From Alphaproteobacteria bacterium (lineage in GTDB: Bacteria > Pseudomonadota > Alphaproteobacteria > UBA2136 > UBA6156): 34,519 nucleotides of DNA. The stretch lies in assembly GCA_027489415.1 (NCBI GenBank), contig JAIXZU010000057.1, positions 1-34,519 of the forward strand. Direction: 5' to 3'. Below are positions 8,468-34,519 of this stretch, one piece after another. The stretch's first letter is position 1. Each line of letters begins with the position of its first letter. A program made the position numbers and the translations under genes. The notes under the pieces were generated by a model. It saw only the letters and a list, made by a program, of their open reading frames with translations. It made no database searches and was not told where the DNA came from.

Positions 8468-9031
8468 TTAAACACGCCCAGTTTGGCGCAACCATTCGCC
8501 TAAGTCTTTATAATGTCGCAGGTGGCGCAACCAAAACGCCCGGATCTCATCAGCATCGCACTCCCCCGCAACCTTATCAAATCCGTCCAGAATCATAATC
8601 TGGTCCATCGGGGTCTTCCCTGCCCCCGCCAATAAAGCCACCGAAGCATGCTGAACCGAGCTAAACACCACAGGCTCTTTATCAGGTTCAGCATAAGCCA
8701 ACGCCTCCCGTATCGTAACCCGCCTGTCATCTTTGCCTTCCATCAGCCGGAGAAAATCCTCACCACCTAAAGTCTGGTTAGCAAACTTTACCAACGGGCC
8801 GGGAAATCCTCGCAATGCCTCAAAATAATAGCCAGCATCCGTCACCATCACCGGACCGCCAACCTTGTTGCAAGCCAAATCAGCAGCTGCCATTGCCACA
8901 TCTTCAACACTCATGCTCTGAATTTCTGGCAGTTCAAACTGTGCCCGAACCAAAGTCACACCGAAGGAAGACAGCAAATCATTGGCACTTCGCCATTTTT
9001 CATCATTTCCAGTCACAAATGTAATCTTCAT
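8468..9031 (-). CDS. Ham1/ITPA-family non-canonical purine NTP pyrophosphatase-like protein
   Basis: Preferred start is ATG 9031 (MKITFVTGNDEKW), with AAAGGGG upstream. It is collinear with ITPA-type motifs (FVTGN..K, LPEIQ, VMVTDAGYYFEALRGFPGPLVKF). The C-terminal FGWD/SHR-type motifs are diverged (PMDQIMILDGFDK). The extended ORF to 9154 runs into the upstream terminator. Confidence 0.65.
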   Translation of the reverse strand: MKITFVTGNDEKWRSANDLLSSFGVTLVRAQFELPEIQSMSVEDVAMAAADLACNKVGGPVMVTDAGYYFEALRGFPGPLVKFANQTLGGEDFLRLMEGKDDRRVTIREALAYAEPDKEPVVFSSVQHASVALLAGAGKTPMDQIMILDGFDKVAGECDADEIRAFWLRHLRHYKDLGEWLRQTGRV

Positions 9032-9132: not shown

Positions 9133-9540
9133 CTAAACCTCGCGCTCCGGCCACTCTTCCGTTTTTTCCCGCCAGCCACGCCTGTCCATTTCAAAGCACA
9201 GGTCATGGGCCTCAAGGTAAGCCTTCACCTCATTCATGCATTTCCGCCCGAAATTCGGAATACGCAGGCACTCGCGCTCGGATTTATCGACCAGATCGCC
9301 AATGTAACGGATACGATCGTTGCGCAAACAGTTCCGGGTCCGGATGGACAACGCCTCCTCCAAACTGGGGATCGGCACATCCAGCTTCGTCCACAGCGCC
9401 AGCGTCTGGGCATCAGGCATGCCCTCGGCCGCCACCACCCCCTGGGCACGTAACAGGTCCAGAAACTGCATCAGCGCAGCCTCCATTTCAACGGATGGAT
9501 TCTCCAGCCGGATGTTCAAACGAATATCAATGCCACTCAT
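9133..9540 (-). CDS. standalone RNA polymerase alpha-subunit C-terminal-domain (alpha-CTD) protein
   Basis: 135 aa. Residues ~60-125 (LEEALSIRTRNCLRNDRIRYIGDLVDKSERECLRIPNFGRKCMNEVKAYLEAHDLCF) are collinear with the E. coli RpoA CTD ([55 protein letters not shown]). There is no alpha-NTD. AAGGAGA Shine-Dalgarno upstream and its own terminator. Confidence 0.8.
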   Translation of the reverse strand: MSGIDIRLNIRLENPSVEMEAALMQFLDLLRAQGVVAAEGMPDAQTLALWTKLDVPIPSLEEALSIRTRNCLRNDRIRYIGDLVDKSERECLRIPNFGRKCMNEVKAYLEAHDLCFEMDRRGWREKTEEWPEREV

Positions 9541-10298: not shown

Positions 10299-10434
10299 CG
10301 GCGCGCAGCGACGTCTCGTGGGCCTGCACGCGCGAGGCTATAAACGGTCACTCTGGAATTTTTTGGCGTAGCGCGGTGTACGAGCGTACATAAGCTGCGC
10401 CAAAAATTTTCAGATGGCCGTTTTAGTCCGCGCC
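10299..10434. repeat. nested-palindrome intergenic element, subtype A, copy 3
   Basis: cggcgcgcagcgacgtctc...gcacgcgcgaggctataaacggtca...ttttggcgtagcgcggtgtacgagcgtacataagctgcgccaaaaa...ggccgttttagtccgcgcc. It lies in a divergent promoter region and is the only copy not next to a stop codon. Confidence 0.85.
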
Positions 10435-10470
10435 TTGCTCAAAGAAGCAATCCACCGTAGTGTGCATACC

Positions 10471-11049
10471 ATGAACAGTCACTACCGGCGCCGCAAACCG
10501 CGCCCGGCCCATAAATCGGGCCCCAAACCCGCCGAGGGAAAGGCTGGAGCCACCGCCTCCGAAGCCAAATCGCCTCCGGCCAAACGCAATAACCGCACCC
10601 AGAGGGGCCGCGGGCGTAGTGGCGCGCCCGTCGCCAAGTCGCGCTGGTTCTACGATGTCCGCCAGTACGCCATCCTCACCGATGCCGACAACAACATCCT
10701 GATCCTCCAACTCCCCAAGGAGTACGACGCCGCCGCTGCCAATACCTGGACCCTCCCCGGCGGGAAGCTGGAACCGTCGGACGAACCCGGCGAGGGCCTG
10801 CTGCGCGAAATCACCGAAGAAACCGGCCTGCCCGCTACCCTGCTCGGCCCCTGCGGTGTCGCCCGCTGGACCAACCGCAACAGCAAAAAACTGGGTATTT
10901 TCTACCGCGCCAGCATTGCCGGCAGCAAACCGGCGCTGAAACTCTCCAACGAGCACCAGCGCGCCATCTGGGTCAGCCTGTCCGAAATCACGGACTTCCC
11001 CTTCCACCGCCCCGAAATGGTCGAAGTCATCAAAAAAATCTCCACCTGA
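10471..11049 (+). CDS. NUDIX hydrolase with a ~60-aa Arg/Lys/Pro-rich N-terminal extension
   Basis: Nudix box GGKLEPSDEPGEGLLREITEETGL. Preferred start is ATG 10471, because the ORF-track start at 10414 lies inside repeat copy 3. Confidence 0.8.
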   Translation: MNSHYRRRKPRPAHKSGPKPAEGKAGATASEAKSPPAKRNNRTQRGRGRSGAPVAKSRWFYDVRQYAILTDADNNILILQLPKEYDAAAANTWTLPGGKLEPSDEPGEGLLREITEETGLPATLLGPCGVARWTNRNSKKLGIFYRASIAGSKPALKLSNEHQRAIWVSLSEITDFPFHRPEMVEVIKKIST

Positions 11050-11101
11050 CCCACCCAACGCACCACTCGACACGCCAAACACAAAGCGATACAAAACCCT
11101 C

Positions 11102-12049
11102 ATGAAGCAACACACTCTCCTCGTCCTCGGCTCCGGCGCTGCCGGCTGCACCGCCGCCATTTATGCCGCCCGTGCCGGTATCAAAACGACACTTATCCGC
11201 GGCAACCAGCCCGGCGGCCAGCTCACGATCACGACGGACGTCGAAAACTACCCCGGCTTCGCCGAAGCCGTCCAAGGCCCATGGCTGATGGAGCAAATGG
11301 AAGCCCAAGCCAAACACTGCGGCGTGGAAGTGGTTGCGGACCACATCATGGCCGCCGACCTCACCGCCAAAACCCTCACCGGCATGAACGGCACCGTCTA
11401 CAGCGCCGACGCCCTGATCATCGCCACCGGCGCTTCTGCCAAATGGCTGGGTCTGGAATCCGAAAAAACCTACAACGGCAAAGGCGTCTCCGCCTGCGCC
11501 ACCTGCGACGGCGCCTTCTACCGGAACCGCAACGTCGCCGTCATCGGCGGCGGCAACTCGGCGCTGGAAGAAGCCCTCTACCTCGCCAATATCGCGAAGC
11601 ACGTCACCCTCATCCACCGGCGGGATAGCTTCCGCGGCGAAAAAGTCCTCCAGAACCGCGTCCTGAACCACGAGAAAATCAGCGTCATCTGGAACTCCGC
11701 CGTCGATGAAATCCTCGGCGACCCCCACCCCATCACCGGCGGCGTCACCGGGCTGCGCCTCAAAAGCACCACGGACGGCACTCTTTCCGAACTCCCCGTC
11801 CACGGCGTCTTCATCGCCATCGGCCACCAGCCGAACACCAGCCTCTTCAAGGGGCAACTGGACATGGACGAAACCGGCTACCTCACCCGCCTCCCCGGCA
11901 CGGTGCTCCCCACCCACATGGGCCAACCACTCCCCGGTGTGTATGTCGCGGGGGACGTCGCCGACAGCATCTACCGCCAAGCGGTCACCGCCGCCGGCAT
12001 GGGTTGCATGGCCGCGCTGGACGCCAACCGCTACCTCGAAAGCCTGTAG
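11102..12049 (+). CDS. trxB: thioredoxin-disulfide reductase
   Basis: 315 aa with an FAD motif (LVLGSGAAGCTAAIYAARA), the redox CATCDG motif and an NADPH motif (VAVIGGGNSALEEALYL). Confidence 0.96.
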   Translation: MKQHTLLVLGSGAAGCTAAIYAARAGIKTTLIRGNQPGGQLTITTDVENYPGFAEAVQGPWLMEQMEAQAKHCGVEVVADHIMAADLTAKTLTGMNGTVYSADALIIATGASAKWLGLESEKTYNGKGVSACATCDGAFYRNRNVAVIGGGNSALEEALYLANIAKHVTLIHRRDSFRGEKVLQNRVLNHEKISVIWNSAVDEILGDPHPITGGVTGLRLKSTTDGTLSELPVHGVFIAIGHQPNTSLFKGQLDMDETGYLTRLPGTVLPTHMGQPLPGVYVAGDVADSIYRQAVTAAGMGCMAALDANRYLESL

Positions 12050-12066
12050 CCTCCAACCCAACAAAA

Positions 12067-12090
12067 AAGGCCCCAACCGGGGCCTTTTTT
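12067..12090 (+). terminator. rho-independent terminator after trxB
   Basis: aaggcccc-aacc-ggggcctt followed by tttt. Confidence 0.85.
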
Positions 12091-12942: not shown

Positions 12943-13635
12943 TTAAAGCCCCTGCACAACGCTGCAACTACCATTATTGGAACTTAACTCAATTCTACCT
13001 GTCCATCTCGCCACGGGCATCAAGCTGGACTCTCCCATTACAATCACACCACTAGCACCGGATACCGCGCTGCTGTAGCGGTAAAGCTGGCCGTTTTTCT
13101 CATAAAAACGATACGTCCCGGAAGCTGATACACTGCACCCGCTGGAATCCCCATACGCATGGCAACTGTCAGAATCATTGATAAGGGTTGTCCATCCTGA
13201 AGTCGTTTGCATGCGCGCCGAGACCGCTGCAGAAGCCCGCGCACCCTGCCCACCCCGGCTACCGGTCGTAGCACTGGCGGAACAACTAATCTGCACATCC
13301 GTACCACTAGGTTTAGCAAGCGTATAGGTTCGGGCCGCGCCGGAGTGGCTTATGTTAGTCCCATTACGGGTCCCCGTCTTGACCGCCACACACCCAGTCG
13401 CATCAACACCGGTCGTCCCCGGCGCGTAAATCATGCCCTTCATACCACATTCCTTAATCGCGGTGGCCAGTGCCAGCGCGCCATCCGCTTTGGCGTTGGC
13501 GCTGTCGGCAATGTTTTTCAAAGCACTCCATGTCATCTGCACATCGGTCGCACCTCCTGCCGCACGCTCCTGCGCGGCAAGGGTGAAAGGAACGCCAAGC
13601 AGGGCCGCCGTCAGGGAGAACGAGATAATTTTCAT
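12943..13635 (-). CDS. secreted Cys-containing protein of unknown function
   Basis: 230 aa with a signal peptide (MKIISFSLTAALLGVPFTLAAQE). The mature part is Ser/Gly/Thr/Ala-rich with 6 Cys. AAGGGG Shine-Dalgarno upstream. Confidence 0.65.
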   Translation of the reverse strand: MKIISFSLTAALLGVPFTLAAQERAAGGATDVQMTWSALKNIADSANAKADGALALATAIKECGMKGMIYAPGTTGVDATGCVAVKTGTRNGTNISHSGAARTYTLAKPSGTDVQISCSASATTGSRGGQGARASAAVSARMQTTSGWTTLINDSDSCHAYGDSSGCSVSASGTYRFYEKNGQLYRYSSAVSGASGVIVMGESSLMPVARWTGRIELSSNNGSCSVVQGL

Positions 13636-18282: not shown

Positions 18283-20877
18283 TCAGGCGCACAGCACCCG
18301 CATCACTTCGGCAAGGCGCCGTCGCTGTTCGTCCTCCGGCAGGGCGGAAAGGTGTTCCGCCAGCAGGCGGTTCACCAGTTTCACCATGTCGTCGGTCACA
18401 CTGCTCCGGGCCTGTACCTCCGTCACCGCCACCACGGGGGCAACGGCAACCTCGGCTTGGGCCGGAACCTGAACCTCAGGCTCGGCGTCCACCATGGTCT
18501 CGGCGGCTTCTTCAACCTCGGGCTCGGCCACCTGTTGCACAGGCAGCTTCACCTCCGGTTGCCGGTCGGCATCATCCTCGGCCACGCCGTCCACCACCTC
18601 GTCGGCAGCGGCGTCGGCTTGCGCCTCGGTCGCGTCCTCCTCGGTGGCATCAGGTTCAGCTGCGGCAGAGGAATCCTCCACCGTCACCTCCTCATCTGCC
18701 GTCACAGCGTCAGCCGTCACCTCGGGCTCAGCCGGCGGGGCCAGCGGCGGTTCCTGCGAATCCACAGTCTCCGTCGTCTCCGTTGCCTTGGCTTTCGGTG
18801 TGCCAAGCGCCTTCAGGGTGGTGAAGAAAACGTCAGGCGTCATCTTCAGCACTTGCATCAGAACGCTCAGTCTGGCCTCATCCCAGAAGGACTTTCCTGC
18901 CAGAATATTTCTGCCAGTTCCCGGGTGGTTGGCATGGCCAAGGTTAACCAAGGCCACACCATAGGTTTGGATGGTGTGCCCTGCTTGGTTCAGCATCTCC
19001 ATCACCAGCGAATTGAACGTTACGCGGTTATTGGTGGCAAAGGTCACCAACGTTTCCATCATAATGCTCTCTTCGGTCGGCAACGTATCCTGCACCGCAG
19101 GGTTAACCTCCGGCTGAGCCTGAGCTTGGGCCGGCTGCTCCTGTGTCGCCACAGTTTCCGTCGTCACCTTGGCCGCATCCAGCTGCACGCCGCCATCTGC
19201 CAATGCCTCGTAAAACGCCTTCGGCGTCACCTTCAGCATCGCCAGCATGGTACGTACCCGCAGCTTGTCCCAGTAGGAATTCCCCGCCATCAAATTGTTG
19301 GCGGTATTCTCCTTCTGGGCTGCCCCGGCCCTCACCAGCTCACGGCCGAACGCCAGCACAGCCAGGCCCTGCTTAACGAACAACTGTTTTACCAGCTTGT
19401 TGAACACCTCGCGGTTGCTGTCGGCATACTCCGCCAGCAGCTCCAGCAGGTCACCCTGCATCGGCGGCAACTCGGCCTTGCCCTCGGGCGCCACGCCGGC
19501 CGGAGCCTTCGTCGCATCCTCAGGCGCATCCTCAAGCGCAGGCCCCGTTGCCGGAACCTCCGCCGCCGTCACCACGTCCGCCTTGTCAGGCGTCGCCGTC
19601 ACGGGGGCATTCGCTGTCACCGGTGTCAGGTTCGGCTGGGCCACCGTCACCGCAGGTTGCGGCTTCAGCAAGTCCGGCACGGTTTTCGCAAACCGCACGG
19701 TCTTCGGCACCATCCCGTCTTCAAACAGGTAGCGCTCGGCCAGTTCATGGTCGGGCACGCGGCCGTTCCACTGGGCAATCACCTTGGCCAGTCCACGGCG
19801 GGAAAGGCTGGTATTGCCCAGCAGAATCACTTCCGCATGGCGCAAATCCGTTGCCTCCCCTCCCAAAATACTCATCAGCGTGTCCGCTGCGCGTATCTCG
19901 GGTGCCAGCAACACCAGGACGGACGCCAGCCGTTTGGCCACGGCATGGTCGCCGTGAACAAAAAAGCGTGGCACCACCGGCATTCCCGGCCGGAGCGGCG
20001 TCCCGATCAGGTCCTGCGTCCCCTTGAACAGGAAACCCTCCGTCAACCCCAGTGCCAGCTTCAATTGGCTGCGCTCGGGTGCCGAAAAAATCTCCCGTTG
20101 GCAGGTGCGGTCATAGAGCTTCGGCACATTCGCCTCAAACTCCATATCCTTCCAGTTCGGCTGATACCGGCCACAATAGGCCTGCAAAGCCTCCAGAATA
20201 AGGTCATTTTCGCTGCGTTTGGTCACGGTTGCCTCCGTTACAATTTCAGGGGAAAGCTCAGTCTTCGGCTCATCGCCACGCAATAGGCCCAGTACACTGG
20301 GCACTGCCATGCCTTTGGCCGCACAGGCTTTCAGCAGGGCTTGCAGGGGCCACAGCCCCAGCGGCTTCTCACCGGCCAGTATTTCCAGGGCGTCCTCTTC
20401 GGTCGCCACGGCCTTCGGGCACAGTGTCATCAGCAGGTCTTCCGCCGTTACCGGCTCGGGGCAGCGCCGCAGCAATTCATGTAAACGCAGGGCCACATCA
20501 GCGTCCCCTTTCACGAAAAACCGCGGGCAGATAGGCTCCCCGAGGCCGATAGTCCGGCCGAACATGTCTTCCTGCCCTTCCCACAACGCGTCGGAAAACG
20601 GCATAACCAGCCGGATCTTCTCACGCTGTTTGTCATTGAAGGCCGCAAAGCCATTCAAAATACCGGCAGTCACATCAAACCCGACCCTCTGGCTTATCTC
20701 CCTGCGGTAAGCAGGGCTGTCACCAATATGCGCCCGGATAAACGCCTTGAGGCGTATCTGGCGCGGGTCACGCGGCCCCACCGGCAATTTCCGGTAGTCA
20801 AAGCCTTCACCCTTACGGGCTAAACCCGCATTCTCATGCGCCAAGTCACTGATATCCCCATCACCAATCTCCGGCAT
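18283..20877 (-). CDS. large modular protein: duplicated HTH-like modules (2 large + 2 small) joined by Ala/Pro/Thr/Val/Glu linkers, with a highly acidic C-terminal region
   Basis: 864 aa with GAGGAGAG Shine-Dalgarno upstream and its own terminator. Internal repeats: aa ~39-200 vs ~223-384 (shared PRFFV.GD..VA.RL...L, ILxG) and aa ~476-560 vs ~606-690 (NLMAGNSYWDKLRVRTMLAMLKVTPKAFYEAL vs NILAGKSFWDEARLSVLMQVLKMTPDVFFTTL). The + strand 684-aa ORF is an antisense artefact (His/Arg/Leu/Gly-rich). Confidence 0.8.
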   Translation of the reverse strand: MPEIGDGDISDLAHENAGLARKGEGFDYRKLPVGPRDPRQIRLKAFIRAHIGDSPAYRREISQRVGFDVTAGILNGFAAFNDKQREKIRLVMPFSDALWEGQEDMFGRTIGLGEPICPRFFVKGDADVALRLHELLRRCPEPVTAEDLLMTLCPKAVATEEDALEILAGEKPLGLWPLQALLKACAAKGMAVPSVLGLLRGDEPKTELSPEIVTEATVTKRSENDLILEALQAYCGRYQPNWKDMEFEANVPKLYDRTCQREIFSAPERSQLKLALGLTEGFLFKGTQDLIGTPLRPGMPVVPRFFVHGDHAVAKRLASVLVLLAPEIRAADTLMSILGGEATDLRHAEVILLGNTSLSRRGLAKVIAQWNGRVPDHELAERYLFEDGMVPKTVRFAKTVPDLLKPQPAVTVAQPNLTPVTANAPVTATPDKADVVTAAEVPATGPALEDAPEDATKAPAGVAPEGKAELPPMQGDLLELLAEYADSNREVFNKLVKQLFVKQGLAVLAFGRELVRAGAAQKENTANNLMAGNSYWDKLRVRTMLAMLKVTPKAFYEALADGGVQLDAAKVTTETVATQEQPAQAQAQPEVNPAVQDTLPTEESIMMETLVTFATNNRVTFNSLVMEMLNQAGHTIQTYGVALVNLGHANHPGTGRNILAGKSFWDEARLSVLMQVLKMTPDVFFTTLKALGTPKAKATETTETVDSQEPPLAPPAEPEVTADAVTADEEVTVEDSSAAAEPDATEEDATEAQADAAADEVVDGVAEDDADRQPEVKLPVQQVAEPEVEEAAETMVDAEPEVQVPAQAEVAVAPVVAVTEVQARSSVTDDMVKLVNRLLAEHLSALPEDEQRRRLAEVMRVLCA

Positions 20878-21187: not shown

Positions 21188-21781
21188 CTAGAAACCAGGC
21201 TTGGGGATGATCCCGGACAGGTTCTGCATCGGCCCGAGCGGGGTTTTTTGGCTCTCACTGCTGGCTATCTCGGGTGTACCGTTCCACAGTTTATACACCA
21301 CCTTGCCATCCACTAAAACCAGCGTCGCCTGAAACTCCCAACCAGAGATATCTGTATGTTTTCTAAAGCCAAATAGGTCAGCCGGTATGTTTCCACCACG
21401 CTTATTCTTGATACTTCTCACCCCAACAACATAAGCCACACAACTATCCTGCGCTGTCACACACGTTTTCACGCCAATCGGCAGGTCTTCCGGACGGAAG
21501 GCGGAGCCAAAAAGGTTAGCAACATCAACGTAGTTCAGGATGCGCACGTTCGCATTGCCATCCGGCGTAAAACCCTTATGTTTCAAGTCGTTTTCCGTTG
21601 TCTGGTCAAGCACCACGTTGTTAAAGGCTTTATGTGCCTCATCGTAGCTGGACCATTTACTCTTCGTATTGGTCGTAGCACTCGGTAAAACAGCGCAGCT
21701 GCTCAAAATTGTCATCGCAGCAAGGGCACTCAGCCAAATTTTATTGCTGCGGGTCAGGGTGCGGGTATGTGTGTGTGTCAT
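21188..21781 (-). CDS. lipoprotein of unknown function
   Basis: 197 aa with a lipobox (AAMTILSSC). This stretch looks lower in GC than the flanks. Confidence 0.7.
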   Translation of the reverse strand: MTHTHTRTLTRSNKIWLSALAAMTILSSCAVLPSATTNTKSKWSSYDEAHKAFNNVVLDQTTENDLKHKGFTPDGNANVRILNYVDVANLFGSAFRPEDLPIGVKTCVTAQDSCVAYVVGVRSIKNKRGGNIPADLFGFRKHTDISGWEFQATLVLVDGKVVYKLWNGTPEIASSESQKTPLGPMQNLSGIIPKPGF

Positions 21782-28963: not shown

Positions 28964-29302
28964 TTAAGCAACCTTCAAGCGCACCACATTCTTCGGCAAG
29001 GCGCCCTTGCCACCGGCCGCATGAATCTTCCGACCCCGGATAATCAAACTCAAACACCCAAACGTCGCACACATGAACATTCCAGAGTTAAACACAAACA
29101 TCGGGTCACCATTGGCAATCACCGCATACAGGAAAAATACAAATGTCTGCGCACTCCACAAACACCATGTAATCAAGGGGGTTGCCGCACATACCTCGGG
29201 CTTGAACCAGAACGCGCGCATCTGCGGGATATAGCCCGCCAAGGCAACAAACCCCATCAGGGCATAAGCAAGCGTTAGCATCTGGTTCATATCAAGGTTC
29301 AT
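28964..29302 (-). CDS. SemiSWEET / PQ-loop family small transporter (3 TM)
   Basis: Preferred start is ATG 29302 (MNLDMNQ...). GFVALAGYIPQMRAFW...WCLWSAQTFVFFLYAVIANGDPMFVFNSGMFMCATFGCLSLII is collinear with bacterial SemiSWEETs (AYAPQ...LWLIYGLLSGD...N). Confidence 0.65.
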   Translation of the reverse strand: MNLDMNQMLTLAYALMGFVALAGYIPQMRAFWFKPEVCAATPLITWCLWSAQTFVFFLYAVIANGDPMFVFNSGMFMCATFGCLSLIIRGRKIHAAGGKGALPKNVVRLKVA

Positions 29303-29442
29303 GAAGAATCTCTCTTTCCGGATCCTTATGCAAAATCCATCCAGAATGACTGACAGTTCCCACATCTGGCGCTGACACCTCTCAAATAGCCCTAAAATGA
29401 TGGGTGAGGCCCAAAAACCACAGTCGGCGGCGCAATCGCATG

Positions 29443-29450
29443 CCCCCCCC
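29443..29450. repeat. C8 homopolymer in the divergent promoter region
   Basis: gcatgcccccccctgtc, 75 nt upstream of the pilin-like start codon. Confidence 0.9.
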
Positions 29451-29524
29451 TGTCAGAAGCGCTGGAGCAGCGTAACATACGATAATTACCAAACCGCTAA
29501 CAACTCGTAAGGAATTTCCTGACA

Positions 29525-30187
29525 ATGAAAAGTAAGTTCACACGTTTGTTCAATCGCATGCTCTCCAACAAAGGCTATACGATTGACCAAACCATTCTGA
29601 TCGTCGCCATCATCGCGATCCTGATCACGCTCGTCATCGTCACTGTGGGCTGGCAGCTCATCAACCGCTCCAGCGGTACCAAGGCTGGTGCACAGGTGAA
29701 ACAGATTGAAGACGCCAACGGCCAGTTCTTCTCCAGCCAGCGCGTGTGGCCCCACCAGGCACTAACATCCACGGCAACCGCTACCCAGAACATGCAGATC
29801 CTCGCTAACAACGGCATCAGCACCTGGGCCGCCAACATTAACCAGAGCGACCTGCGCAACCTGATCCCCGGCTTCAAACTCTCCGGCAGCGCCATTTATC
29901 ACGGCTTTGGTTCCGGTGGTATCATTACCCAGCAGGCTAACCGCTTCCTGGCCAGCATGAACGTCGGTACGGACACCCGCATGGTGGTCCAGTTTGCAGG
30001 GGTTCCCCTCTCGGAAGCTCTCGAAGCTGACCGTGCAATTGACGGCGTCGAAGGCTTCGATGTCGGCCGCGTTATCTACGGCACCTCAGCCTGTCTGAAC
30101 GGTACCGCAGGCGGTAACGTCACTGCTCCGTCAGAAGCAACCGGCGGTACAGTATTCCTCTGCTATGCAGCGAACACTGTCGGCTAA
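29525..30187 (+). CDS. pilin-like secreted or anchored protein with an atypical prepilin-type N-terminus
   Basis: 17-aa basic leader ending in KG, then YTIDQTILIVAIIAILITLVIVTV (hydrophobic helix; Q where type IV pilins carry E5). Two Cys near the C-terminus (SACLNG...FLCYAAN) resemble a pilin disulfide loop. No assembly genes lie nearby. Confidence 0.5.
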   Translation: MKSKFTRLFNRMLSNKGYTIDQTILIVAIIAILITLVIVTVGWQLINRSSGTKAGAQVKQIEDANGQFFSSQRVWPHQALTSTATATQNMQILANNGISTWAANINQSDLRNLIPGFKLSGSAIYHGFGSGGIITQQANRFLASMNVGTDTRMVVQFAGVPLSEALEADRAIDGVEGFDVGRVIYGTSACLNGTAGGNVTAPSEATGGTVFLCYAANTVG

Positions 30188-30202
30188 CCAATCGCCTCAG
30201 AT

Positions 30203-30230
30203 AAAACCGCCCACTCGGGCGGTTTTATTG
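30203..30230 (+). terminator. rho-independent terminator
   Basis: aaaaccgccc-actc-gggcggtttt followed by attg. Confidence 0.8.
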
Positions 30231-30242
30231 TCTTGAGCACCC

Positions 30243-30265
30243 AAAAAAAGGCCCCCTTAGGGCCT
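30243..30265 (-). terminator. rho-independent terminator after phaR
   Basis: Minus strand: AGGCCC-TAAGG-GGGCCT followed by TTTTTTT. Confidence 0.8.
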
Positions 30266-30283
30266 ATTGTGCTATATCAGCAG

Positions 30284-30820
30284 CTACTTAGCCTTCAGTC
30301 GTTCAATTTCCTGCTGCAGTTCACGGATACGCGCATCCTTTTCAGTATCACCAGTGCCCCGTAAAAACGGGTTAAATAGGCCCATCACCTGCTGCATCTG
30401 TTCAATCTGCTTACGCTGGATCTGCTGCATCGCCGCAAACTGCGCAAAAGGCGAAAACCCTCCCAATGCCTTGTTGGTCTCATCCCGAATCCGGTTCTGG
30501 TTCTGCTGGAACACGTCCATCACCATCTCAAGGTAATGGGGTAAAATACTCTGCATGGAGTTATCGTAAAACCCGATGACATGCTTCAGGAAGTTCACCG
30601 GCAGCATCGCTGCACCCTTGCTTTCTTCTTCCAGGATGATCTGCGCCAGTGTCTGGCGGGTCAGGTCTTCACCTGTCTTGGCGTCCACCACTTCCACGTT
30701 CTGGCCACCGCGGATGATTCCCGCAAGGTCGGACTGGGTAATATACGTACTGGTCTCAGTATTATATAAACGCCGGTTGGCGTATTTCTTGATGATGACA
30801 GGTTCAGTTCCGGTAGCCAT
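30284..30820 (-). CDS. phaR: polyhydroxyalkanoate synthesis repressor PhaR
   Basis: IKKYANRRLYNTETSTYITQSDLAGIIRGGQNVEVVDAKTGEDLTRQTLAQIILEEE is the PhaR signature. Preferred start is ATG 30820, with AGGAGGGA upstream. Confidence 0.92.
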   Translation of the reverse strand: MATGTEPVIIKKYANRRLYNTETSTYITQSDLAGIIRGGQNVEVVDAKTGEDLTRQTLAQIILEEESKGAAMLPVNFLKHVIGFYDNSMQSILPHYLEMVMDVFQQNQNRIRDETNKALGGFSPFAQFAAMQQIQRKQIEQMQQVMGLFNPFLRGTGDTEKDARIRELQQEIERLKAK

Positions 30821-30976
30821 AGCATCCCTCCTGCCACAAAGGTGGCGGTTTGTTGTGTTCTTGGGTAGTATCCTGCCATGACTTGGCGCCGCGCTCAACC
30901 CATCAATCCCCATGGCCACAACCCTGGCGTGCAACAAACAGGCACATTCCTGCGTCAGGCCAATCCTTTAGCCGCG

Positions 30977-32092
30977 ATGAGCACCGCCGCTCTCCTTGCT
31001 ACCAACCGCCCGCTCCTCGAACAAACGCTCCAGAATCTCATGCAGCAGGTGGAGCAAATCCCGACCGACATCAACTGGCCGGAGTTCCAAGCCGGCCTCG
31101 CCCGCTACACCGCCAACACCACTCCGCCCTCAAGCCCCGACTATCCCGTTATCAGTACCTCAGGCCGCACCACACTACTTGACGCCGGCGGCGTAGGCCC
31201 CTCCATCGTCCTCATCCCCAGCATGGTGAATAAAGGCTACATCCTCGACCTCTGCCCCGGTCACAGCCTCACCGAACACCTGCGCGCTCAAGGCTTCCAC
31301 GTCCTGCTCATCGACTGGGGCACCCCAACACCGGAAACGGTCCAATCCCTGTCCGACACCATCACCAACGGCCTCGAACCGCTCCTCAAAAACGCCCACA
31401 CTCATTTCGGCCCCCTCTCCCTCTTCGGCTACTGCATGGGCGGGCTCCTCGCCCTCGCCGCCACCGTCCGAATCAACTCAAATACCCAAACACCCAAACA
31501 CCCAGTCACCAAACTCGCCCTCGCCGCGATGCCATGGGACTTCTCCGCCACCACCAGCGCCCAGCACATGCAACTGGCCAAACCGTTCCTAGAGCCCTGG
31601 CTCACACCACCACAAAACCAGACACCAGATACCAGACACCAAACACTCATCCCCCCCGAAGTCATGTCCCACTATTTCTGGAGCCTAGACCCCTGGTCGC
31701 CCATCCGCCGTCTCATGGCCTACGGCCGGGAAGCCGACCCCAACCGCCTCATCCAAATGACCGCCCTTGAGGACTGGCTGAACGACGGCCTCCCCCTCGA
31801 CGGCCCCATCGCGCGGGAAATGCTCATCGACTGGTACACAGACAACACCCCCCTGAAGGGCGAGTGGCAAGTCGGCGGCACCCCCATCCTCCCCCAAAAC
31901 ATCAACTGCCCGCTCTGGGTTTGCATCACGCAAAACGACATCCTCGTCCCCACCGCCTCCAGCCTCCCCTTCCTCGCCCAAACCAAAGGCGCACAGGTAG
32001 TGATGTCCGACACCGGCCACGTCGGCCTCGTCTGCGGCCGCCGCGCCAAGGAACGCCTCTACACCCCCCTAACCGCTTGGCTAAAATCCTAA
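30977..32092 (+). CDS. phaC: PHA synthase-like alpha/beta hydrolase (class III/IV PhaC-like)
   Basis: Lipase-box-like GYCMGG with a catalytic Cys, and a C-terminal SDTGHVGLV His motif. It is divergent from phaR. The ORF track starts at 30878; I prefer ATG 30977, which leaves room for divergent promoters. The start is uncertain. Confidence 0.8.
   Translation: MSTAALLATNRPLLEQTLQNLMQQVEQIPTDINWPEFQAGLARYTANTTPPSSPDYPVISTSGRTTLLDAGGVGPSIVLIPSMVNKGYILDLCPGHSLTEHLRAQGFHVLLIDWGTPTPETVQSLSDTITNGLEPLLKNAHTHFGPLSLFGYCMGGLLALAATVRINSNTQTPKHPVTKLALAAMPWDFSATTSAQHMQLAKPFLEPWLTPPQNQTPDTRHQTLIPPEVMSHYFWSLDPWSPIRRLMAYGREADPNRLIQMTALEDWLNDGLPLDGPIAREMLIDWYTDNTPLKGEWQVGGTPILPQNINCPLWVCITQNDILVPTASSLPFLAQTKGAQVVMSDTGHVGLVCGRRAKERLYTPLTAWLKS
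32061..32092 (+). repeat. direct repeat, left copy (last 10 codons plus stop of phaC)
   Basis: acacccccctaaccgcttggctaaaatcctaa encodes TPLTAWLKS*. Confidence 0.85.
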
Positions 32093-32093
32093 A

Positions 32094-32125
32094 AAAGGGT
32101 GGCACTATAATTAGGACCACCCTTT
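32094..32125. terminator. hairpin between the convergent phaC and 152-aa genes
   Basis: aaagggtgg-cactataattagga-ccacccttt with flanking A and T runs. Confidence 0.6.
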
Positions 32126-32133
32126 CAACGTAT

Positions 32134-32592
32134 TTATGAATAGCGATTTTCAAACCATTCCTTAGCTTCACCCAACTTTAAATCAAAGTGAGCAAGAAAA
32201 CGCGCAAGTAAATCAACCGTACCCCTTGAAACTAAGGGTATTCTTAACGCTTGCGACTCACTCAGGCTTGCAAACTTTCCAAGTGGTACTAATTCACGTT
32301 GGAGTTCCATGGCCCCGTGACTTGTCTCCAGTCCATAGAATCCAACATGATTCCACAAGCGAGTTACAGCACTTTTAGGAATGCCATGGACTTCAGCGAA
32401 TTTAAGAATATCCTGATAAGAAATAAGTTTCTCAAAAATTTCAGGGGTACCCGTTAAACCAAGCTGAACATTCTTGAAGTTTCCTTGAAGTTTTTGTCGT
32501 GCAACCTCCTCACATGCCAATTTCTGTAAAATCCCTATATCCCGAAGGATATTATCCAAGTTGTGAGTATCACCAGTCAAAGTATAGGACAT
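32134..32592 (-). CDS. hypothetical protein (152 aa) with two helix-hairpin-helix-like segments
   Basis: The only ORF in the AT-rich insert. VHGIPKSAVTRLWNHVGF and ALRIPLVSRGTVDLLARFLAHFDLKLG resemble HhH motifs. The second resembles CLRIPNFGRKCMNEVKAYLEAHDLCF in the alpha-CTD protein at 9133..9540. Confidence 0.55.
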   Translation of the reverse strand: MSYTLTGDTHNLDNILRDIGILQKLACEEVARQKLQGNFKNVQLGLTGTPEIFEKLISYQDILKFAEVHGIPKSAVTRLWNHVGFYGLETSHGAMELQRELVPLGKFASLSESQALRIPLVSRGTVDLLARFLAHFDLKLGEAKEWFENRYS

Positions 32593-32672
32593 CTCAGTCT
32601 CCGCAAAAGGGGCCGCACATCATGCAGCTAAGGCTAAACCTTCTTTTTGTATACGTTAATTATCTCAGTTTG

Positions 32673-32705
32673 ACAACCCCCCTCACCCTCTGGCTCAAAT
32701 CCTGA
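32673..32705 (+). repeat. direct repeat, right copy (displaced remnant of the phaC 3' end)
   Basis: acaacccccctcaccctctggctcaaatcctga encodes, in frame, TPLTLWLKS*. It uses GC-richer Leu codons (CTC) than the left copy (CTA). Confidence 0.85.
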
Positions 32706-32707
32706 TA

Positions 32708-33370
32708 TTAACCCTCCAGCCGGATATCCGCCCCGAGCGTACTCTGCCGTAACGCCCGGTAACCCATCAACACCCGTATCACCACATAAAACGCCCAGTG
32801 CCCAAGGCATAGCAACCAGAACCCACCTTCCACTTCAAGAATCACCCACGGCACAATCCCCACAAACAGCATCGCCCCTATGAAATGCAACAGGGAAACT
32901 CTCTTCTGCACCATCAGCAGCGGCACATGCGCCACAACGAACACCGCAGCAACCAGTACAGACACCATCAGAATATCTCCCCAATACCGGTATAGCCAAA
33001 CTACAAGCACCATCAAAAACAGCTGCTGGAAAAGAATATCAACCGTTTTCACCACCACAAATGGCAGGTTGAAATTGAGGAAATAGGACGCCCCATGCCG
33101 TTGTAAATAGCCTTTAGGTATCGGAAAGCGCCCGTTATAGAACATCGCCGCCATCACCATCCCCAACCATAGCAAACCCATCAGATTGCTCCACACCAGC
33201 GGCTCCGGCGGCAAAAAGTCACGGGCAGTTTCCATCAAAAATATACTCCCTGCTGCGTAAATCCCTGCAAAGTGGTGCGGGTGGCTGAAATAGGTTTGCT
33301 GGCGGTGTTGCAGGTAAAAACTCACCGCATGAACCATTCCGGCCAACAAGAATACCGTAATCAAGTCCAT
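32708..33370 (-). CDS. polytopic integral membrane protein of unknown function
   Basis: 220 aa with at least 6 hydrophobic segments. Its ATG immediately follows the stop of the upstream glycosylase gene (TAGATG). Confidence 0.65.
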   Translation of the reverse strand: MDLITVFLLAGMVHAVSFYLQHRQQTYFSHPHHFAGIYAAGSIFLMETARDFLPPEPLVWSNLMGLLWLGMVMAAMFYNGRFPIPKGYLQRHGASYFLNFNLPFVVVKTVDILFQQLFLMVLVVWLYRYWGDILMVSVLVAAVFVVAHVPLLMVQKRVSLLHFIGAMLFVGIVPWVILEVEGGFWLLCLGHWAFYVVIRVLMGYRALRQSTLGADIRLEG

Positions 33371-34051
33371 CTAATAAGCCACTTCCTCAGGGTCCAAACT
33401 CCGCCACAAATACCAACTCGCCACCGTTCTGTAGGGCTTCCACCCCTCCCCTACCACCATCATCCGCTTCTGCCACAGCTTCAAATGCGGCCCGCTCATC
33501 GCTAATTTCTCAGCAGGGTCAAAATCCTCATACAGGTGCCCATATTCCTTCTTGAATCCTTTAACCAACCCAATATCTCCCTCAGAAATCACATCCGGCC
33601 TCATCAAACAGAACATCAAGAACATCTCCGCTGTCCACCGCCCAATCCCCGGTAATTTCACCAGCTCCGCAATCACCGCCTCATCGGCCATGCCGTCCCA
33701 CAGCCCGGGGTGTACGGTCCCGTCCAGAAACCCACTCGCAATCCCCCGCACATACTTCACTTTTCCGCCGGAAAACCCGCACGCCCGCACCTCCTCCTCC
33801 GTCGACGCCAGCACCCGCTCCGCCGTAAACGGAACACCAACCAGCGCCTCAAAACGCGCCCAGATACTCGCCGCCGCCCTCACTGAAATCTGCTGCCCCA
33901 CCACACTGCGCATCAGCGTCACCATCGGCTCACCGCGGGTCCCGAGCATACCATCCGGAAAGCGTGCCATCAGCCCCGCCATCACCTCATCCCGCGCACT
34001 CAGCTCGGCACAAGCCTTCGCCCAATATTTTGGTCTTTTAAGGTCTTCCAT
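33371..34051 (-). CDS. alkA: DNA-3-methyladenine glycosylase II-like (HhH-GPD superfamily)
   Basis: GQQISVRAAASIWARF, an HhH (LVKLPGIGRWTAEMFLMFCL) and a catalytic Asp context (RPDVISEGDIGLVKG). Confidence 0.85.
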   Translation of the reverse strand: MEDLKRPKYWAKACAELSARDEVMAGLMARFPDGMLGTRGEPMVTLMRSVVGQQISVRAAASIWARFEALVGVPFTAERVLASTEEEVRACGFSGGKVKYVRGIASGFLDGTVHPGLWDGMADEAVIAELVKLPGIGRWTAEMFLMFCLMRPDVISEGDIGLVKGFKKEYGHLYEDFDPAEKLAMSGPHLKLWQKRMMVVGEGWKPYRTVASWYLWRSLDPEEVAY

Positions 34052-34307
34052 CCTTAAAAACTTTCTTGTTAAGCCACATGTTATGGGGCGGTGTCACCCC
34101 GGAAGGTTAGTGGGTGGCAAAAATCCTATTTTTGCCGGGCCCCGCTACCTATCCGGGGCCCACCCCCGCCGGGAGGCCCGCCGGAAGCATAATAACCTCA
34201 TGCTTTAGCATTCTTTTTTGCGTTTCACGCGGGTTCGCAAAGCGAAGACGCGGTGAAATGAAACGCAAACCTGAAAATGCCGCAAGGCATAAGCCCCCAC
34301 GCACGGC

Positions 34308-34519
34308 CTAACTCAAAAGCCCCTTCACACGCTCTAAATCAGCAGGCGTATCCACCCCAACAGGCTCATGCTCCGTCGGCAGAACATAGTACTTAAGCCC
34401 GATTTCCAACCCTCTCAGCTGTTCCAAATCCTCTTGTTTTTGCAACGGCGTCGGTGCCTGCGCCACATACTTCTCCAGCGCCTCATAACGGTATCCATAG
34501 AAGCCCACGTGCCGCCACA
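34308..34519 (-). CDS. kdsB: 3-deoxy-manno-octulosonate cytidylyltransferase, C-terminal part; CDS runs off the right edge
   Basis: RHVGFYGYRYEALEKYV...PLQKQEDLEQLRGLEIGLKYYV...VGVDTPADLERV matches the KdsB C-terminus. The frame stays open to the window edge. Confidence 0.8.
   Translation of the reverse strand, partial: WRHVGFYGYRYEALEKYVAQAPTPLQKQEDLEQLRGLEIGLKYYVLPTEHEPVGVDTPADLERVKGLLS

Follow-up and report, generated by a model that had tools for sequence, protein, structure and literature searches.

The phaC locus and its repeated gene end

The stretch of DNA analysed here, which we call the window (34,519 nt; contig JAIXZU010000057.1, Alphaproteobacteria bacterium), carries a phaC-like gene and a convergent gene for an HhH-GPD DNA glycosylase. 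Between these two genes lie an AT-rich interval with a single small ORF, a second copy of the phaC 3' end and a gene for a putative membrane protein, in the following arrangement.

30878 to 32092, plus strand: phaC-like PHA synthase gene (alpha/beta hydrolase with a GYCMGG Cys box; Pfam Abhydrolase_6)
32063 to 32092, plus strand: proximal (working) phaC tail, TPLTAWLKS*, with the AT-richer codons CTA, GCT, CTA and TAA
32094 to 32125, either strand: hairpin flanked by an A-run and a T-run, folding at -18.1 and -19.3 kcal/mol
32134 to 32592, minus strand: ORF152, 152 aa, 40.5% GC, member of a divergent, nearly orphan family
32593 to 32675, minus strand: ORF152 upstream region with a GGAG ribosome-binding site, a 5' leader and a putative promoter
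32676 to 32705, plus strand: distal tail, read as a displaced phaC remnant, ..PLTLWLKS*, 28/28 nt against L085/L086 and 24/30 nt against the proximal copy
32708 to 33370, minus strand: 220-aa all-helical membrane ORF, GC 51%, GC3 0.64, its ATG abutting the HhH-GPD stop codon
33371 to 34051, minus strand: HhH-GPD DNA glycosylase gene (Pfam HhH-GPD, 4.4e-10)

The true start of phaC is probably Met34, at 30977, and phaR adjoins the gene in divergent orientation. Among 1831 homologues, the named ones are called PHA synthase or alpha/beta hydrolase in their sources; in NCBIfam, the match was to PHA_synth_III_C, partial and below the cut-off. Four residues near the C-terminus (P397, L398, W401 and L402) were invariant in 21 sequences.

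The final 30 nt of phaC, ACC CCC CTA ACC GCT TGG CTA AAA TCC TAA, recur downstream as ACC CCC CTC ACC CTC TGG CTC AAA TCC TGA. This repetition had been reported in the initial annotation and was borne out by the alignment, in which the two copies match without gaps at 24 of 30 nt (80%); the 6 mismatches are spread along the repeat, whose first 8 nt, at the left edge, are identical. The start-to-start offset of the two tails is 613 nt, one more than the 612 bp first given. Matches to the 30-mer with 6 or fewer mismatches occurred in none of 300 Markov-simulated windows, and no third site was found in the 34.5-kb window on either strand, even at up to 9 mismatches. A search with the phaC tail pattern returned no match in viral contigs and a single chance match, within a histidine-kinase gene, in JGI metagenomes.

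The surely homologous portion of the distal tail is 32678-32705, and CAACC at 32674-32678 would represent junction microhomology. Because this portion equals the functional phaC end of the relative L085/L086 at all 28 nt, TGA stop included, the distal copy is homologous to the phaC end and no chance resemblance; it is a genuine phaC terminus that has been displaced. The same match to a real phaC end, together with the scatter of the six differences along the repeat, indicates that the two tails are different alleles and that no fresh target duplication is involved. The distal TGA (32703-32705) lies 2 nt from the stop of the converging membrane ORF, exactly as had been annotated.

The working tail departs abruptly from that of close relatives exactly at the start of the repeat (-30). 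Relative to L001 and L002, phaC diverges by 2.5-5% over the 120 nt before the repeat and by 23-27% over its final 30 nt (against L002, 3 differences before the repeat and 8 within it), and 10 relatives hardly vary in the block from -92 to -31. When identity was followed in sliding windows along both phaC and the HhH-GPD gene, a single jump appeared, at the last 30 nt of phaC, and no long foreign tract in either gene. As to codons, the CTA and TAA of the working tail are also those of the closest relatives (L001, L002 and L084), and the displaced tail has CTC and TGA, as in more distant relatives; both tails of the window read ACC where close relatives have GAC. The contrast between proximal CTA and distal CTC, to which the initial annotation drew attention, is real, but CTA counts for little as an argument, as it makes up 5 of the 51 Leu codons of phaC and 2 of those 5 lie in the tail.

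The AT-rich interval and ORF152

At 41.0% GC, the interval 32093-32672 is the lowest 580-nt stretch of the window and is compositionally foreign; the whole window has 57.2% GC and phaC 62.1%, so that the annotated AT-richness relative to the flanks holds on computation. The 583 nt between the tails contain, also as annotated, one hairpin and ORF152 as the sole ORF. The hairpin is unusually stable (folding z of -4.7 on the plus strand and -3.6 on the minus strand, with no shuffle equally stable) and looks like an intrinsic terminator for ORF152 on the minus strand and, less well, for phaC on the plus strand. An Rfam search over the region and related slots yielded nothing significant.

ORF152 has a GC3 of 0.33, against 0.62-0.78 for neighbouring genes. 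It had no match in Pfam, PHROGs, PADLOC or NCBIfam, was absent from the phage and plasmid collections, and gave a single weak match (P0122) among 1.84 billion representative proteins; the members of its family are L001_163, L088_158, L085_141 and P0122. Over its full length, ORF152 shows 26% identity to both L001_163 and L088_158, whereas these two share 62% with each other and phaC of the window shares 81% with that of L001. Judging from these identities and from its GC3, ORF152 is clearly not the vertical counterpart of L001_163 in the closest relative.

The C-terminal part of the ORF152 family resembles the C-terminal domain of the RNA polymerase alpha subunit (alpha-CTD, PF03118), as suggested by profile comparisons. 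The family profile matched alpha-CTD chains in the PDB (E 6e-4), and hhalign against the E. coli alpha-CTD gave a probability of 94.8%; hhalign probabilities were 92-95%, with the alignment restricted to the second helix-hairpin-helix. In comparison with stand-alone alpha-CTD proteins, the C-terminal ~50 residues of the family would correspond to this second helix-hairpin-helix, whereas ORF152 alone falls below every Pfam threshold and the N-terminal half of the family (MSYTLxGDxxNL..) has no known relative. The AlphaFold2 single-sequence model of ORF152 (pLDDT 44) was too poor for a fold search. Separately, a clear stand-alone alpha-CTD protein is encoded in the same window at 9133..9540.

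Upstream of ORF152, we read putative promoter hexamers, a -10 element TATACA (32653->32648) and a -35 element TTGTCA (32676->32671) with a 17-nt spacer; the promoter scan omits them, the final -10 base being A. The upstream region is 78% identical to that of L001_163 over 94 nt and 81% identical to that of L088_158 over 64 nt.

On the other side of the distal tail, the membrane gene is host-like in composition (GC3 0.64). Its product had no match in Pfam or NCBIfam and no homologue in the 100 loci fetched for comparison or in plasmids, and its AlphaFold2 single-sequence model, helical and of low confidence (pLDDT 53), was likewise too poor for a fold search. The adjoining HhH-GPD gene is 81% identical in nucleotide sequence to that of L001 along its whole length; at its stop end, 41 of 44 nt equal L001 by reading, and sliding windows there gave 0.82-0.83.

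A hypervariable slot between phaC and HhH-GPD

The comparison set comprised the 100 fetched loci, of which 12 were close-relative contigs. A search of genome contigs with the single phaC protein as query found no relative, and a search with the phaC alignment found only distant ones (at most 62% identity); the latter were set aside as slot comparators, their inspected phaC neighbourhoods not being comparable, as was a distant phaC clade (P0014, P0015 and P0017) in which the gene order is different and uninformative.

Eleven close relatives share the gene order phaR, phaC, slot, HhH-GPD, kdsB and DUF3108, two of them without HhH-GPD, and the HhH-GPD gene forms the conserved right-hand border of the slot (syntenic in L001-L003, L084 and L087-L089). 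About nine different contents occupy the slot among these 11 relatives; L087 has nothing there, and its phaC and HhH-GPD genes overlap by 4 nt. Compared across these loci, the space between the two convergent genes is a hypervariable slot for small, mostly AT-rich cargo or for none. None of the 11 has the empty site that the initial annotation led us to expect, in which phaC would directly adjoin the membrane gene.

The ORF152 family was found solely at this locus, placed directly behind phaC in L088, L085 and L001. In relatives, phaC is followed by the terminator, the family gene (minus strand), its conserved upstream region (~60 nt) and the HhH-GPD stop. In L088 and L001 the upstream region runs into this stop, the canonical sequence ending ..AAGCAACC/TCCTCAGGG within the HhH-GPD stop region (here and below, a slash marks the junction). 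No phaC-tail repeat flanks the family gene in L088 or L085, and no second copy of ORF152 turned up among the loci and collections compared.

L001 provides a second example. Its order is phaC, an ORF80 unit (as in L003), a displaced phaC tail and an ORF163 unit (as in L088), and what follows the displaced tail, a terminator and ORF163, matches what follows the phaC end in L088. The displaced tail of L001 starts at about -38, with small indels, whereas that of the window starts at -28/-30; the working tail of L001 shares CCT and CTA with L002. By these alignments, L001 carries a second, independent displaced phaC tail, with other cargo and another left boundary. Local alignment detected no decayed third tail copy in L003.

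Origin of the displaced tail

Our leading explanation, which we put forward tentatively and at somewhat less than even confidence, is that recombination stacked two alternative cargoes in the hypervariable slot and left the repeat as a scar. The scar most likely arose with DNA from a related bacterium, in an ordinary event that involved no new mobile element. The process would be homology-facilitated illegitimate recombination, homologous on one side and joined by microhomology on the other, with a donor from a related lineage that had a different slot occupant. The recipient would most likely have had phaC, the membrane gene and HhH-GPD tightly packed, and the incoming piece would have comprised a phaC 3' end, the terminator hairpin, ORF152 and its promoter region, the unit that adjoins phaC in relatives. 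A homologous crossover would have taken place where phaC hardly varies, immediately before its last 30 nt, and the other end of the incoming DNA (..TTTGACAACC) would have joined the recipient phaC at about -28 (..GACC/CCCTCACC..). Because of this join, phaC would now end in the donor tail, and the recipient's own tail would be kept as a non-coding remnant of 28-30 nt attached to the membrane gene.

Several features of the locus are in keeping with such a scar, among them the hypervariability of the slot, the allelic nature of the two tails, the usual place of the ORF152 family directly behind phaC, the departure of ORF152 from a vertical counterpart and the comparable stacking in L001. A conserved anchor lies directly beside the replaced segment (phaC -92 to -31, with the jump in divergence at -30), and its near invariance among relatives makes it a good homologous anchor. 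The displaced remnant retains both a part of phaC and the old downstream gene, in the window (the membrane gene, 2 nt away) as well as in L001. At the junction, an apparent microhomology of ~3-5 nt (CAACC/ACC) is common to the canonical end of the family's upstream region (..GCAACC/TCC) and the phaC tail (..GACC/CCC), as compared in the sequences of relatives, not of the parents; a canonical ..GCAACC/TCCTCA and a phaC tail ..CGACC/CCCTCA would together give the ..ACAACC/CCCTCA of the window. In classic experiments on this kind of recombination, the microhomology is reportedly short and GC-rich.

Other observations weigh against this account or against its direction. The recipient arrangement, phaC beside the membrane gene, is unobserved in the relatives examined, and two tail displacements in sister lineages within ~10 nt exceed what random illegitimate joins would predict. 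The ACC shared by both tails, against GAC in close relatives, has to be ascribed to junction microhomology and a lineage-specific change. The working tail of the window has the CTA and TAA of the closest relatives and the displaced one the CTC and TGA of distant relatives, and the working tail of L001 looks native, which fits the opposite direction there. It had been proposed that a replacement terminus displaced the original one: the distal copy is indeed an authentic displaced phaC end and the working tail diverges at -30, and a donor origin of the working tail is the likelier of two candidate directions.

The same mechanism might have run in reverse, with the membrane gene and the phaC-tail fragment as the newcomers, which we regard as a distinctly less probable account, though the strongest of the alternatives. 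The resident arrangement would then be the canonical one of phaC, terminator, ORF152, promoter and HhH-GPD. Incoming DNA from a relative with phaC, the membrane gene and HhH-GPD would have been anchored by homology at the HhH-GPD side, and its other end, with only ~28 nt of the donor phaC, would have been joined illegitimately at CAACC in the region of the ORF152 promoter and the HhH-GPD stop. This would account for the ORF152 unit being at the usual place of its family beside phaC, for an ORF152 upstream region that is 78-81% identical to those of L001/L088 and so about as similar as the flanking genes, and for the absence of the membrane gene from all 100 fetched loci, 12 of them contigs of close relatives; it also agrees with a working tail that resembles L001, L002 and L084 and a displaced tail that equals the more distant L085, as well as with the native look of the L001 working tail. 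However, it is the membrane gene that is host-like (GC3 0.64) and ORF152 that is deviant (0.33) and clearly no vertical ortholog of L001_163. Moreover, the HhH-GPD gene is subclade-like up to its stop (41/44 nt to L001), so that no tract from a distant donor is visible, and the abrupt divergence of the working tail at -30 is left unexplained.

We consider it improbable that an integrase-less cassette or island remnant was inserted by a trans-acting recombinase at an attB site in the phaC 3' end. Under site-specific integration, the crossover would have occurred in the shared core ACCCCCCT, the element, like a CIME or an IME, would have brought a phaC-like replacement tail, and the junction of the excised circle would read ..TTTGACAACCCCCCTAACCGC... 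Direct repeats do flank an AT-rich insert that restores the phaC reading frame, the position of all six mismatches to the right of the identical left edge is what a left-edge crossover would give, ACC in both copies would be a natural result of a shared-core crossover, and in L001 a tail is displaced at almost the same point, there with other cargo. Nevertheless, no recombinase was found in the 583-nt interval, where the initial annotation had already noted its absence, nor among the 25 Pfam-scanned ORFs of the window. In L088 and L085, members of the ORF152 family occupy this locus with no repeat around them, and the left boundary in L001 (about -38, with small indels, against -28/-30) speaks against a single fixed crossover core. 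Inverted repeats and arm-type sites are absent besides the terminator, no further tail copies were found in the window, the viral contigs or the JGI metagenomes, and ORF152 is missing from the phage and plasmid collections. Of the element originally envisaged at the phaC 3' end, the direct repeats, the foreign composition and the displaced terminus remain, whereas a discrete att-flanked element is not supported.

It is even less probable, in our estimation, that the phaC 3' end serves as a dedicated site of recombination, at which a recombinase encoded elsewhere in the genome stacks self-contained single-gene cassettes. In each cassette, a cargo gene would be accompanied by a promoter, a terminator and a phaC tail, in an integron-like manner without attC or a linked integrase; if true, this would explain the nine different contents of the slot as well as the presence of two displaced tails in sister lineages. 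A transposon or IS target-site duplication was rejected, in agreement with the earlier remark that the repeat is unlike one: it is 30 nt long at 80% identity, no transposase is present and the only inverted repeat is the terminator hairpin. Least probable is a trivial origin, either a chimeric metagenome assembly of two strains, for which the window has the length of a metagenomic contig and strain mixtures with different slot contents clearly exist but which would need a shared k-mer where the junction shares only ~3-5 nt and would have to recur in L001, an independent assembly from another sample with the same kind of structure, or a tandem duplication followed by divergence, which would give identical copies and in which the non-functional copy, still 28/28 to another lineage, would be too young for six changes in the functional one.

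If the scar is correctly read, the slot offers a clean natural example of how accessory genes can accumulate at a hotspot flanked by conserved convergent genes, with no mobile-element machinery at work. A single event would both have swapped the end of a functional enzyme gene and have kept the old end as a datable scar, and such scars of displaced tails might allow gene gains to be ordered in uncultured lineages. The case also cautions that a gene-end duplication is not always an att site. The ORF152 cargo may merit its own study, as a fast-evolving, nearly orphan family with an alpha-CTD-like domain and a conserved putative promoter.

Among known systems, integrase-bearing islands in gene 3' ends and their integrase-less derivatives (CIMEs and IMEs; reviewed in PMC5704250) are similar in having direct repeats around an AT-rich insert and a gene 3' end rebuilt by element-borne sequence. 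The phaC locus differs from them in that it has no integrase, its repeats are only 80% identical and mismatched throughout, the boundary differs between the two cases, and the cargo occurs at the same locus in relatives without repeats. Homology-facilitated illegitimate recombination, described for transformable bacteria and conjugation (de Vries & Wackernagel 2002 and Prudhomme et al. 2002, as cited in PMC5361080; a further precedent is PMC3240628), combines, like the event proposed for phaC, one homologous anchor with a heterologous end joined at a short microhomology and leaves an insertion whose illegitimate junction carries a small duplication or deletion; unlike those experimental cases, that of phaC is inferred from sequence alone.

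Effector loci of the rhs, CDI and T6SS kinds are known for C-terminal displacement and orphan modules (Kirchberger et al. 2017, PMC5361080; Jackson et al. 2009, as cited therein). In contrast to those loci, phaC encodes a housekeeping-type enzyme and no polymorphic toxin, the swap of ~9 codons yields nearly the same peptide and so no functional diversification of phaC, and the cargoes are unrelated small genes, not immunity genes, in stacks of two units only. In both settings, if the phaC scar is correctly read, a new 3' end with downstream cargo is placed beside a conserved gene body, the old 3' fragment and its cargo are retained and shifted downstream, the conserved upstream sequence serves as the anchor, and repeated events can build stacks without a recombinase.

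Two phaC tails around an AT-rich interval

The recurrence of the phaC 3' end downstream, claimed in the initial annotation, is borne out: the two copies are identical at 24 of 30 positions without gaps, and both translate as the same-frame tail (TPLTAWLKS and TPLTLWLKS, each followed by a stop). The second copy lies downstream as claimed, at a distance of 613 nt, not the quoted 612. No further 30-mer match with nine or fewer mismatches was found anywhere else in the window, and hits with six or fewer mismatches occurred in 0 of 300 Markov-simulated windows.

30878..32092, plus strand: phaC-like gene, ending ACC CCC CTA ACC GCT TGG CTA AAA TCC TAA at 32063-32092 (working tail)
32094-32125: strong hairpin within the interval
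32134..32592, minus strand: ORF152, 152 aa
32676-32705, plus strand: distal, displaced phaC tail, ACC CCC CTC ACC CTC TGG CTC AAA TCC TGA
32708..33370, converging: membrane ORF, 220 aa
33371..34051: HhH-GPD glycosylase gene

The interval is AT-rich, as had been seen by eye; 32093-32672 has 41.0% GC against 57.2% for the window and is the lowest-GC 580-nt stretch in the entire 34.5 kb. Its content (one hairpin and one 152-aa ORF) and the 2 nt between the distal stop and the stop of the converging membrane ORF also agree with the initial description, and the ATG of the membrane ORF abuts the HhH-GPD stop. The mechanically read phaC ORF (404 aa, from 30878) probably starts too early, the doubtful stretch being 30878-30976; in the protein collection the gene is called at 371 aa, and several close relatives start at the residue corresponding to Met34 (MSTAALLAT, 30977).

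Public assemblies hold phaC homologues at 69-81% amino-acid identity, with C-termini of the form ..RLYDPLTxWLKS in which P, L, W and L are invariant (n=21 sequences). We fetched 12 close-relative contigs, of which L085 and L086 are one locus from two samples, leaving 11 distinct relatives; all are metagenomic, with at most 82% nucleotide identity. The distal copy matches the functional phaC end of L085/L086 at 28 of 28 positions, TGA stop included. Because this remnant is non-coding yet identical to the working gene end of another lineage, it must be young, and therefore the six differences between the copies cannot have been acquired after a local duplication. The feature is real, its homology is proven, and the copies are two phaC-tail alleles with different histories.

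Elsewhere in the window, the second most AT-rich stretch lies at about 21300-21750 (about 47% GC in 580-nt windows) and coincides with an ORF that may be another acquired gene.

21188..21781, minus strand: 197-aa ORF, no Pfam match
18283..20877, 10423..12076 and 12943..13635, minus strand: long ORFs, one of 864 aa, no Pfam match at E 1e-3 or better

The surroundings of the long ORFs are ordinary housekeeping (dnaX, recR, rsfS, rlmH, SRP RNA and a hybrid histidine kinase). In the profiled part (e.g. 29000-34500), plus-strand GC skew stays almost everywhere between -0.1 and -0.5, and the strands differ strongly in composition: plus-strand genes encode Leu with CTC (35 of 51 codons in phaC), minus-strand genes with CTG and TTG and almost never with CTC.

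A hypervariable slot and the ORF152 family

The gene order common to the relatives is phaR, phaC, a variable slot, HhH-GPD, kdsB and DUF3108; in L085/L086 and L091, HhH-GPD is absent and kdsB directly follows the slot.

Contents of the slot between phaC and HhH-GPD
Window: ORF152 and membrane ORF
L001: 80-aa ORF and 163-aa ORF
L002: disrupted ORF with in-frame stops (Nudix-like by eye) and a repeat element
L003: 68-aa ORF and 211-aa ORF
L084: 166-aa ORF, 34% GC
L085/L086: 141-aa ORF
L087: empty, with a 4-nt overlap between phaC and HhH-GPD
L088: 158-aa ORF
L089: 88-aa ORF, plus strand
L091: 251-aa ORF

In most cases, the GC content of the small minus-strand cargo genes is below that of the host. 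The L084 cargo (L084:1840-2340; hydrophobic by eye, GC3 0.23, host phaC 66% GC) is an extreme compositional outlier with no spacer, its stop overlapping the phaC stop by 4 nt, and the L002 slot (L002:7265-7720) reads by eye as a Nudix-hydrolase pseudogene. Between HhH-GPD and kdsB there is usually an intergenic element, conserved over about 125 nt, which forms a long imperfect hairpin (TTTTGCGTTTCAC...GTGAAAYGAAACGCAAA), shows compensatory changes at some positions and has no match in Rfam (window 34175-34310; L002:7716-7850 and 8685-8800; L001:3675-3800; L091:4545-4680; L084:3172-3216); in L002 a second copy inside the slot leaves HhH-GPD flanked by two, and this extra copy may reflect a further duplication scar or else a small repeat element. 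L001 and L003 also share a conserved stretch of about 170-190 nt ahead of their 80-aa and 68-aa ORFs (L001:2131-2300, L003:7383-7560), with changes that look compensatory (GGGCCTACAGGCCC vs GGCCCCACAGGGCC); the stretch has no Rfam match and may act as a structured 5' leader or encode a small RNA.

ORF152 had no match in Pfam, PHROGs, PADLOC or NCBIfam and no homologue by word-indexed search, and a single weak match (P0122, E 6e-4) emerged among 1.84 billion representative proteins. Direct comparison with slot ORFs nevertheless brought out a family: ORF152 has 26% full-length identity to L001_163, 25% to L088_158, 27% to P0122 and a weaker likeness to L085_141; L001_163 and L088_158 share 62%. 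Every family member is encoded on the minus strand immediately after phaC; at the L088 and L001 loci, the phaC tail is followed by a terminator hairpin, the family gene, about 60 nt of conserved upstream sequence and then the HhH-GPD stop codon. Sequence identity in the region upstream of ORF152 reaches 78% over 94 nt with L001 and 81% over 64 nt with L088, and no flanking repeat surrounds the family gene in L088 or L085. ORF152 is the regular companion of phaC rather than an outsider.

The family profile matches the RNA polymerase alpha-subunit C-terminal domain (25 PDB sequences, best E 6e-4), with hhalign probabilities of 94.8% against E. coli alpha-CTD and 92% against a stand-alone protein elsewhere in the window.

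9133..9540, minus strand: stand-alone RNA polymerase alpha-CTD protein, 135 aa (Pfam PF03118, E 4e-17)

This protein, encoded between an unannotated ORF and a Ham1-family gene, is similar to the family in the latter's C-terminal part. ORF152 itself is most probably a small protein, either DNA-binding or RNA-polymerase-related; its AlphaFold2 model was too poor for fold comparison.

Junctions, direction and mechanism

A second, independent displaced tail was found in L001, whose working phaC ends ..CCT CTA ACC CTC TGG CTC AAA TCC TAA (last base 1846) and is followed by a hairpin and the 80-aa ORF, the unit that follows phaC in L003. The displaced tail (GCCTACTACTCCCCCTCACCCTCTGGCTGAAATCCTAA, L001:2318-2356) lies about 480 nt further on, and after it come a terminator, ORF163 and the upstream region, exactly as beyond the L088 phaC end. 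Two slot units in tandem with a displaced tail between them occur in 2 of the 11 relatives. By local alignment, the remnant reaches to about -38 in phaC in L001, with small indels, and to -28/-30 in the window, boundaries that are close but not the same.

At canonical loci, the family upstream region finishes with ..TTAATAAGCAACC|TCCTCAGGG, read on the plus strand as the HhH-GPD stop region, where GGTTGCTT on the minus strand provides the TTG of a putative -35 element. At equal distance from the conserved GTATACGTTAA motif the window reads ..AGTTTGACAACC|CCCTCACCCTCTGG, and phaC tails of relatives read ..CTACGACC|CCCTCACC. Because the three compare in this way, we place the window junction within a putative microhomology of 3-5 nt (CAACC / GACC), and it may be the junction, not phaC, that contributed the ACC read as "Thr" in the distal copy. 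On the minus strand, the junction would create a putative promoter upstream of ORF152 (TTGTCA, 17 nt, TATACA), both hexamers being readings by eye and not tool output, since the promoter scan demands T as the last -10 base.

The ORF152 unit may tentatively be regarded as the newcomer, the direction proposed initially, because its GC3 (0.33) deviates from that of the membrane gene (0.64) and host genes (0.62-0.78), because the displaced tail is slightly nearer the tails of the subclade than the working tail is, and because ORF152 and L001_163 share 26% identity against 62% for L001_163 and L088_158, even though the window and L001 pair as mutual closest relatives (81% amino-acid identity in phaC, 81% nucleotide identity in HhH-GPD). 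The mirror direction, in which the membrane gene arrived with a phaC-tail fragment beside a resident ORF152 unit, is rather unlikely; in its favour, the working tail has CTA and TAA like L001, L002 and L084 and the displaced one CTC and TGA like L085, the L001 working tail looks native, and the membrane gene was found only in the window among 100 fetched loci.

Site-specific integration at the phaC end, the att-site, mobile-element reading of the initial annotation, has partial support but is quite improbable. The direct repeat stands, its left edge is an identical 8-nt stretch (ACCCCCCT) with every mismatch to the right, a core-crossover pattern, and two events near the same place are suggestive; however, the boundaries differ between the window and L001, the cargo family occupies the same locus without repeats in other genomes, and a recombinase is absent from the insert, as the initial annotation stated, and from the 25 window ORFs scanned with Pfam. 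No other copy of the tail was found in the window, viral contigs or JGI metagenomes, and none of ORF152 in phage and plasmid collections; the predicted empty site, phaC directly beside the membrane gene, was not found among the 11 relatives. That the phaC end serves as an integron-like cassette platform is very improbable. A chimeric assembly is scarcely credible, as the junction lacks the shared k-mer on which such a misjoin would depend, and the independent assembly L001 is similarly built.

The simplest account is homology-facilitated illegitimate recombination between slot variants, in which a resident variant and DNA arriving from a related lineage would recombine, homologously on one side and by an illegitimate join at microhomology on the other. 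The phaC block -92..-31 would serve as the anchor because it is almost invariant among relatives. The working tail differs from L002 at 8 of 30 positions and from L001 at 7 of 30, against 3 of 120 and 6 of 120 just upstream; a crossover resolved in this block would give such abrupt divergence. The best reading of the locus is a displacement scar at a hotspot for gene cargo, one more case of a familiar type of event: homology-facilitated illegitimate recombination is the mechanism suggested for T6SS and rhs loci, with their displaced effector ends and orphan immunity genes (PMC5361080, PMC3240628).
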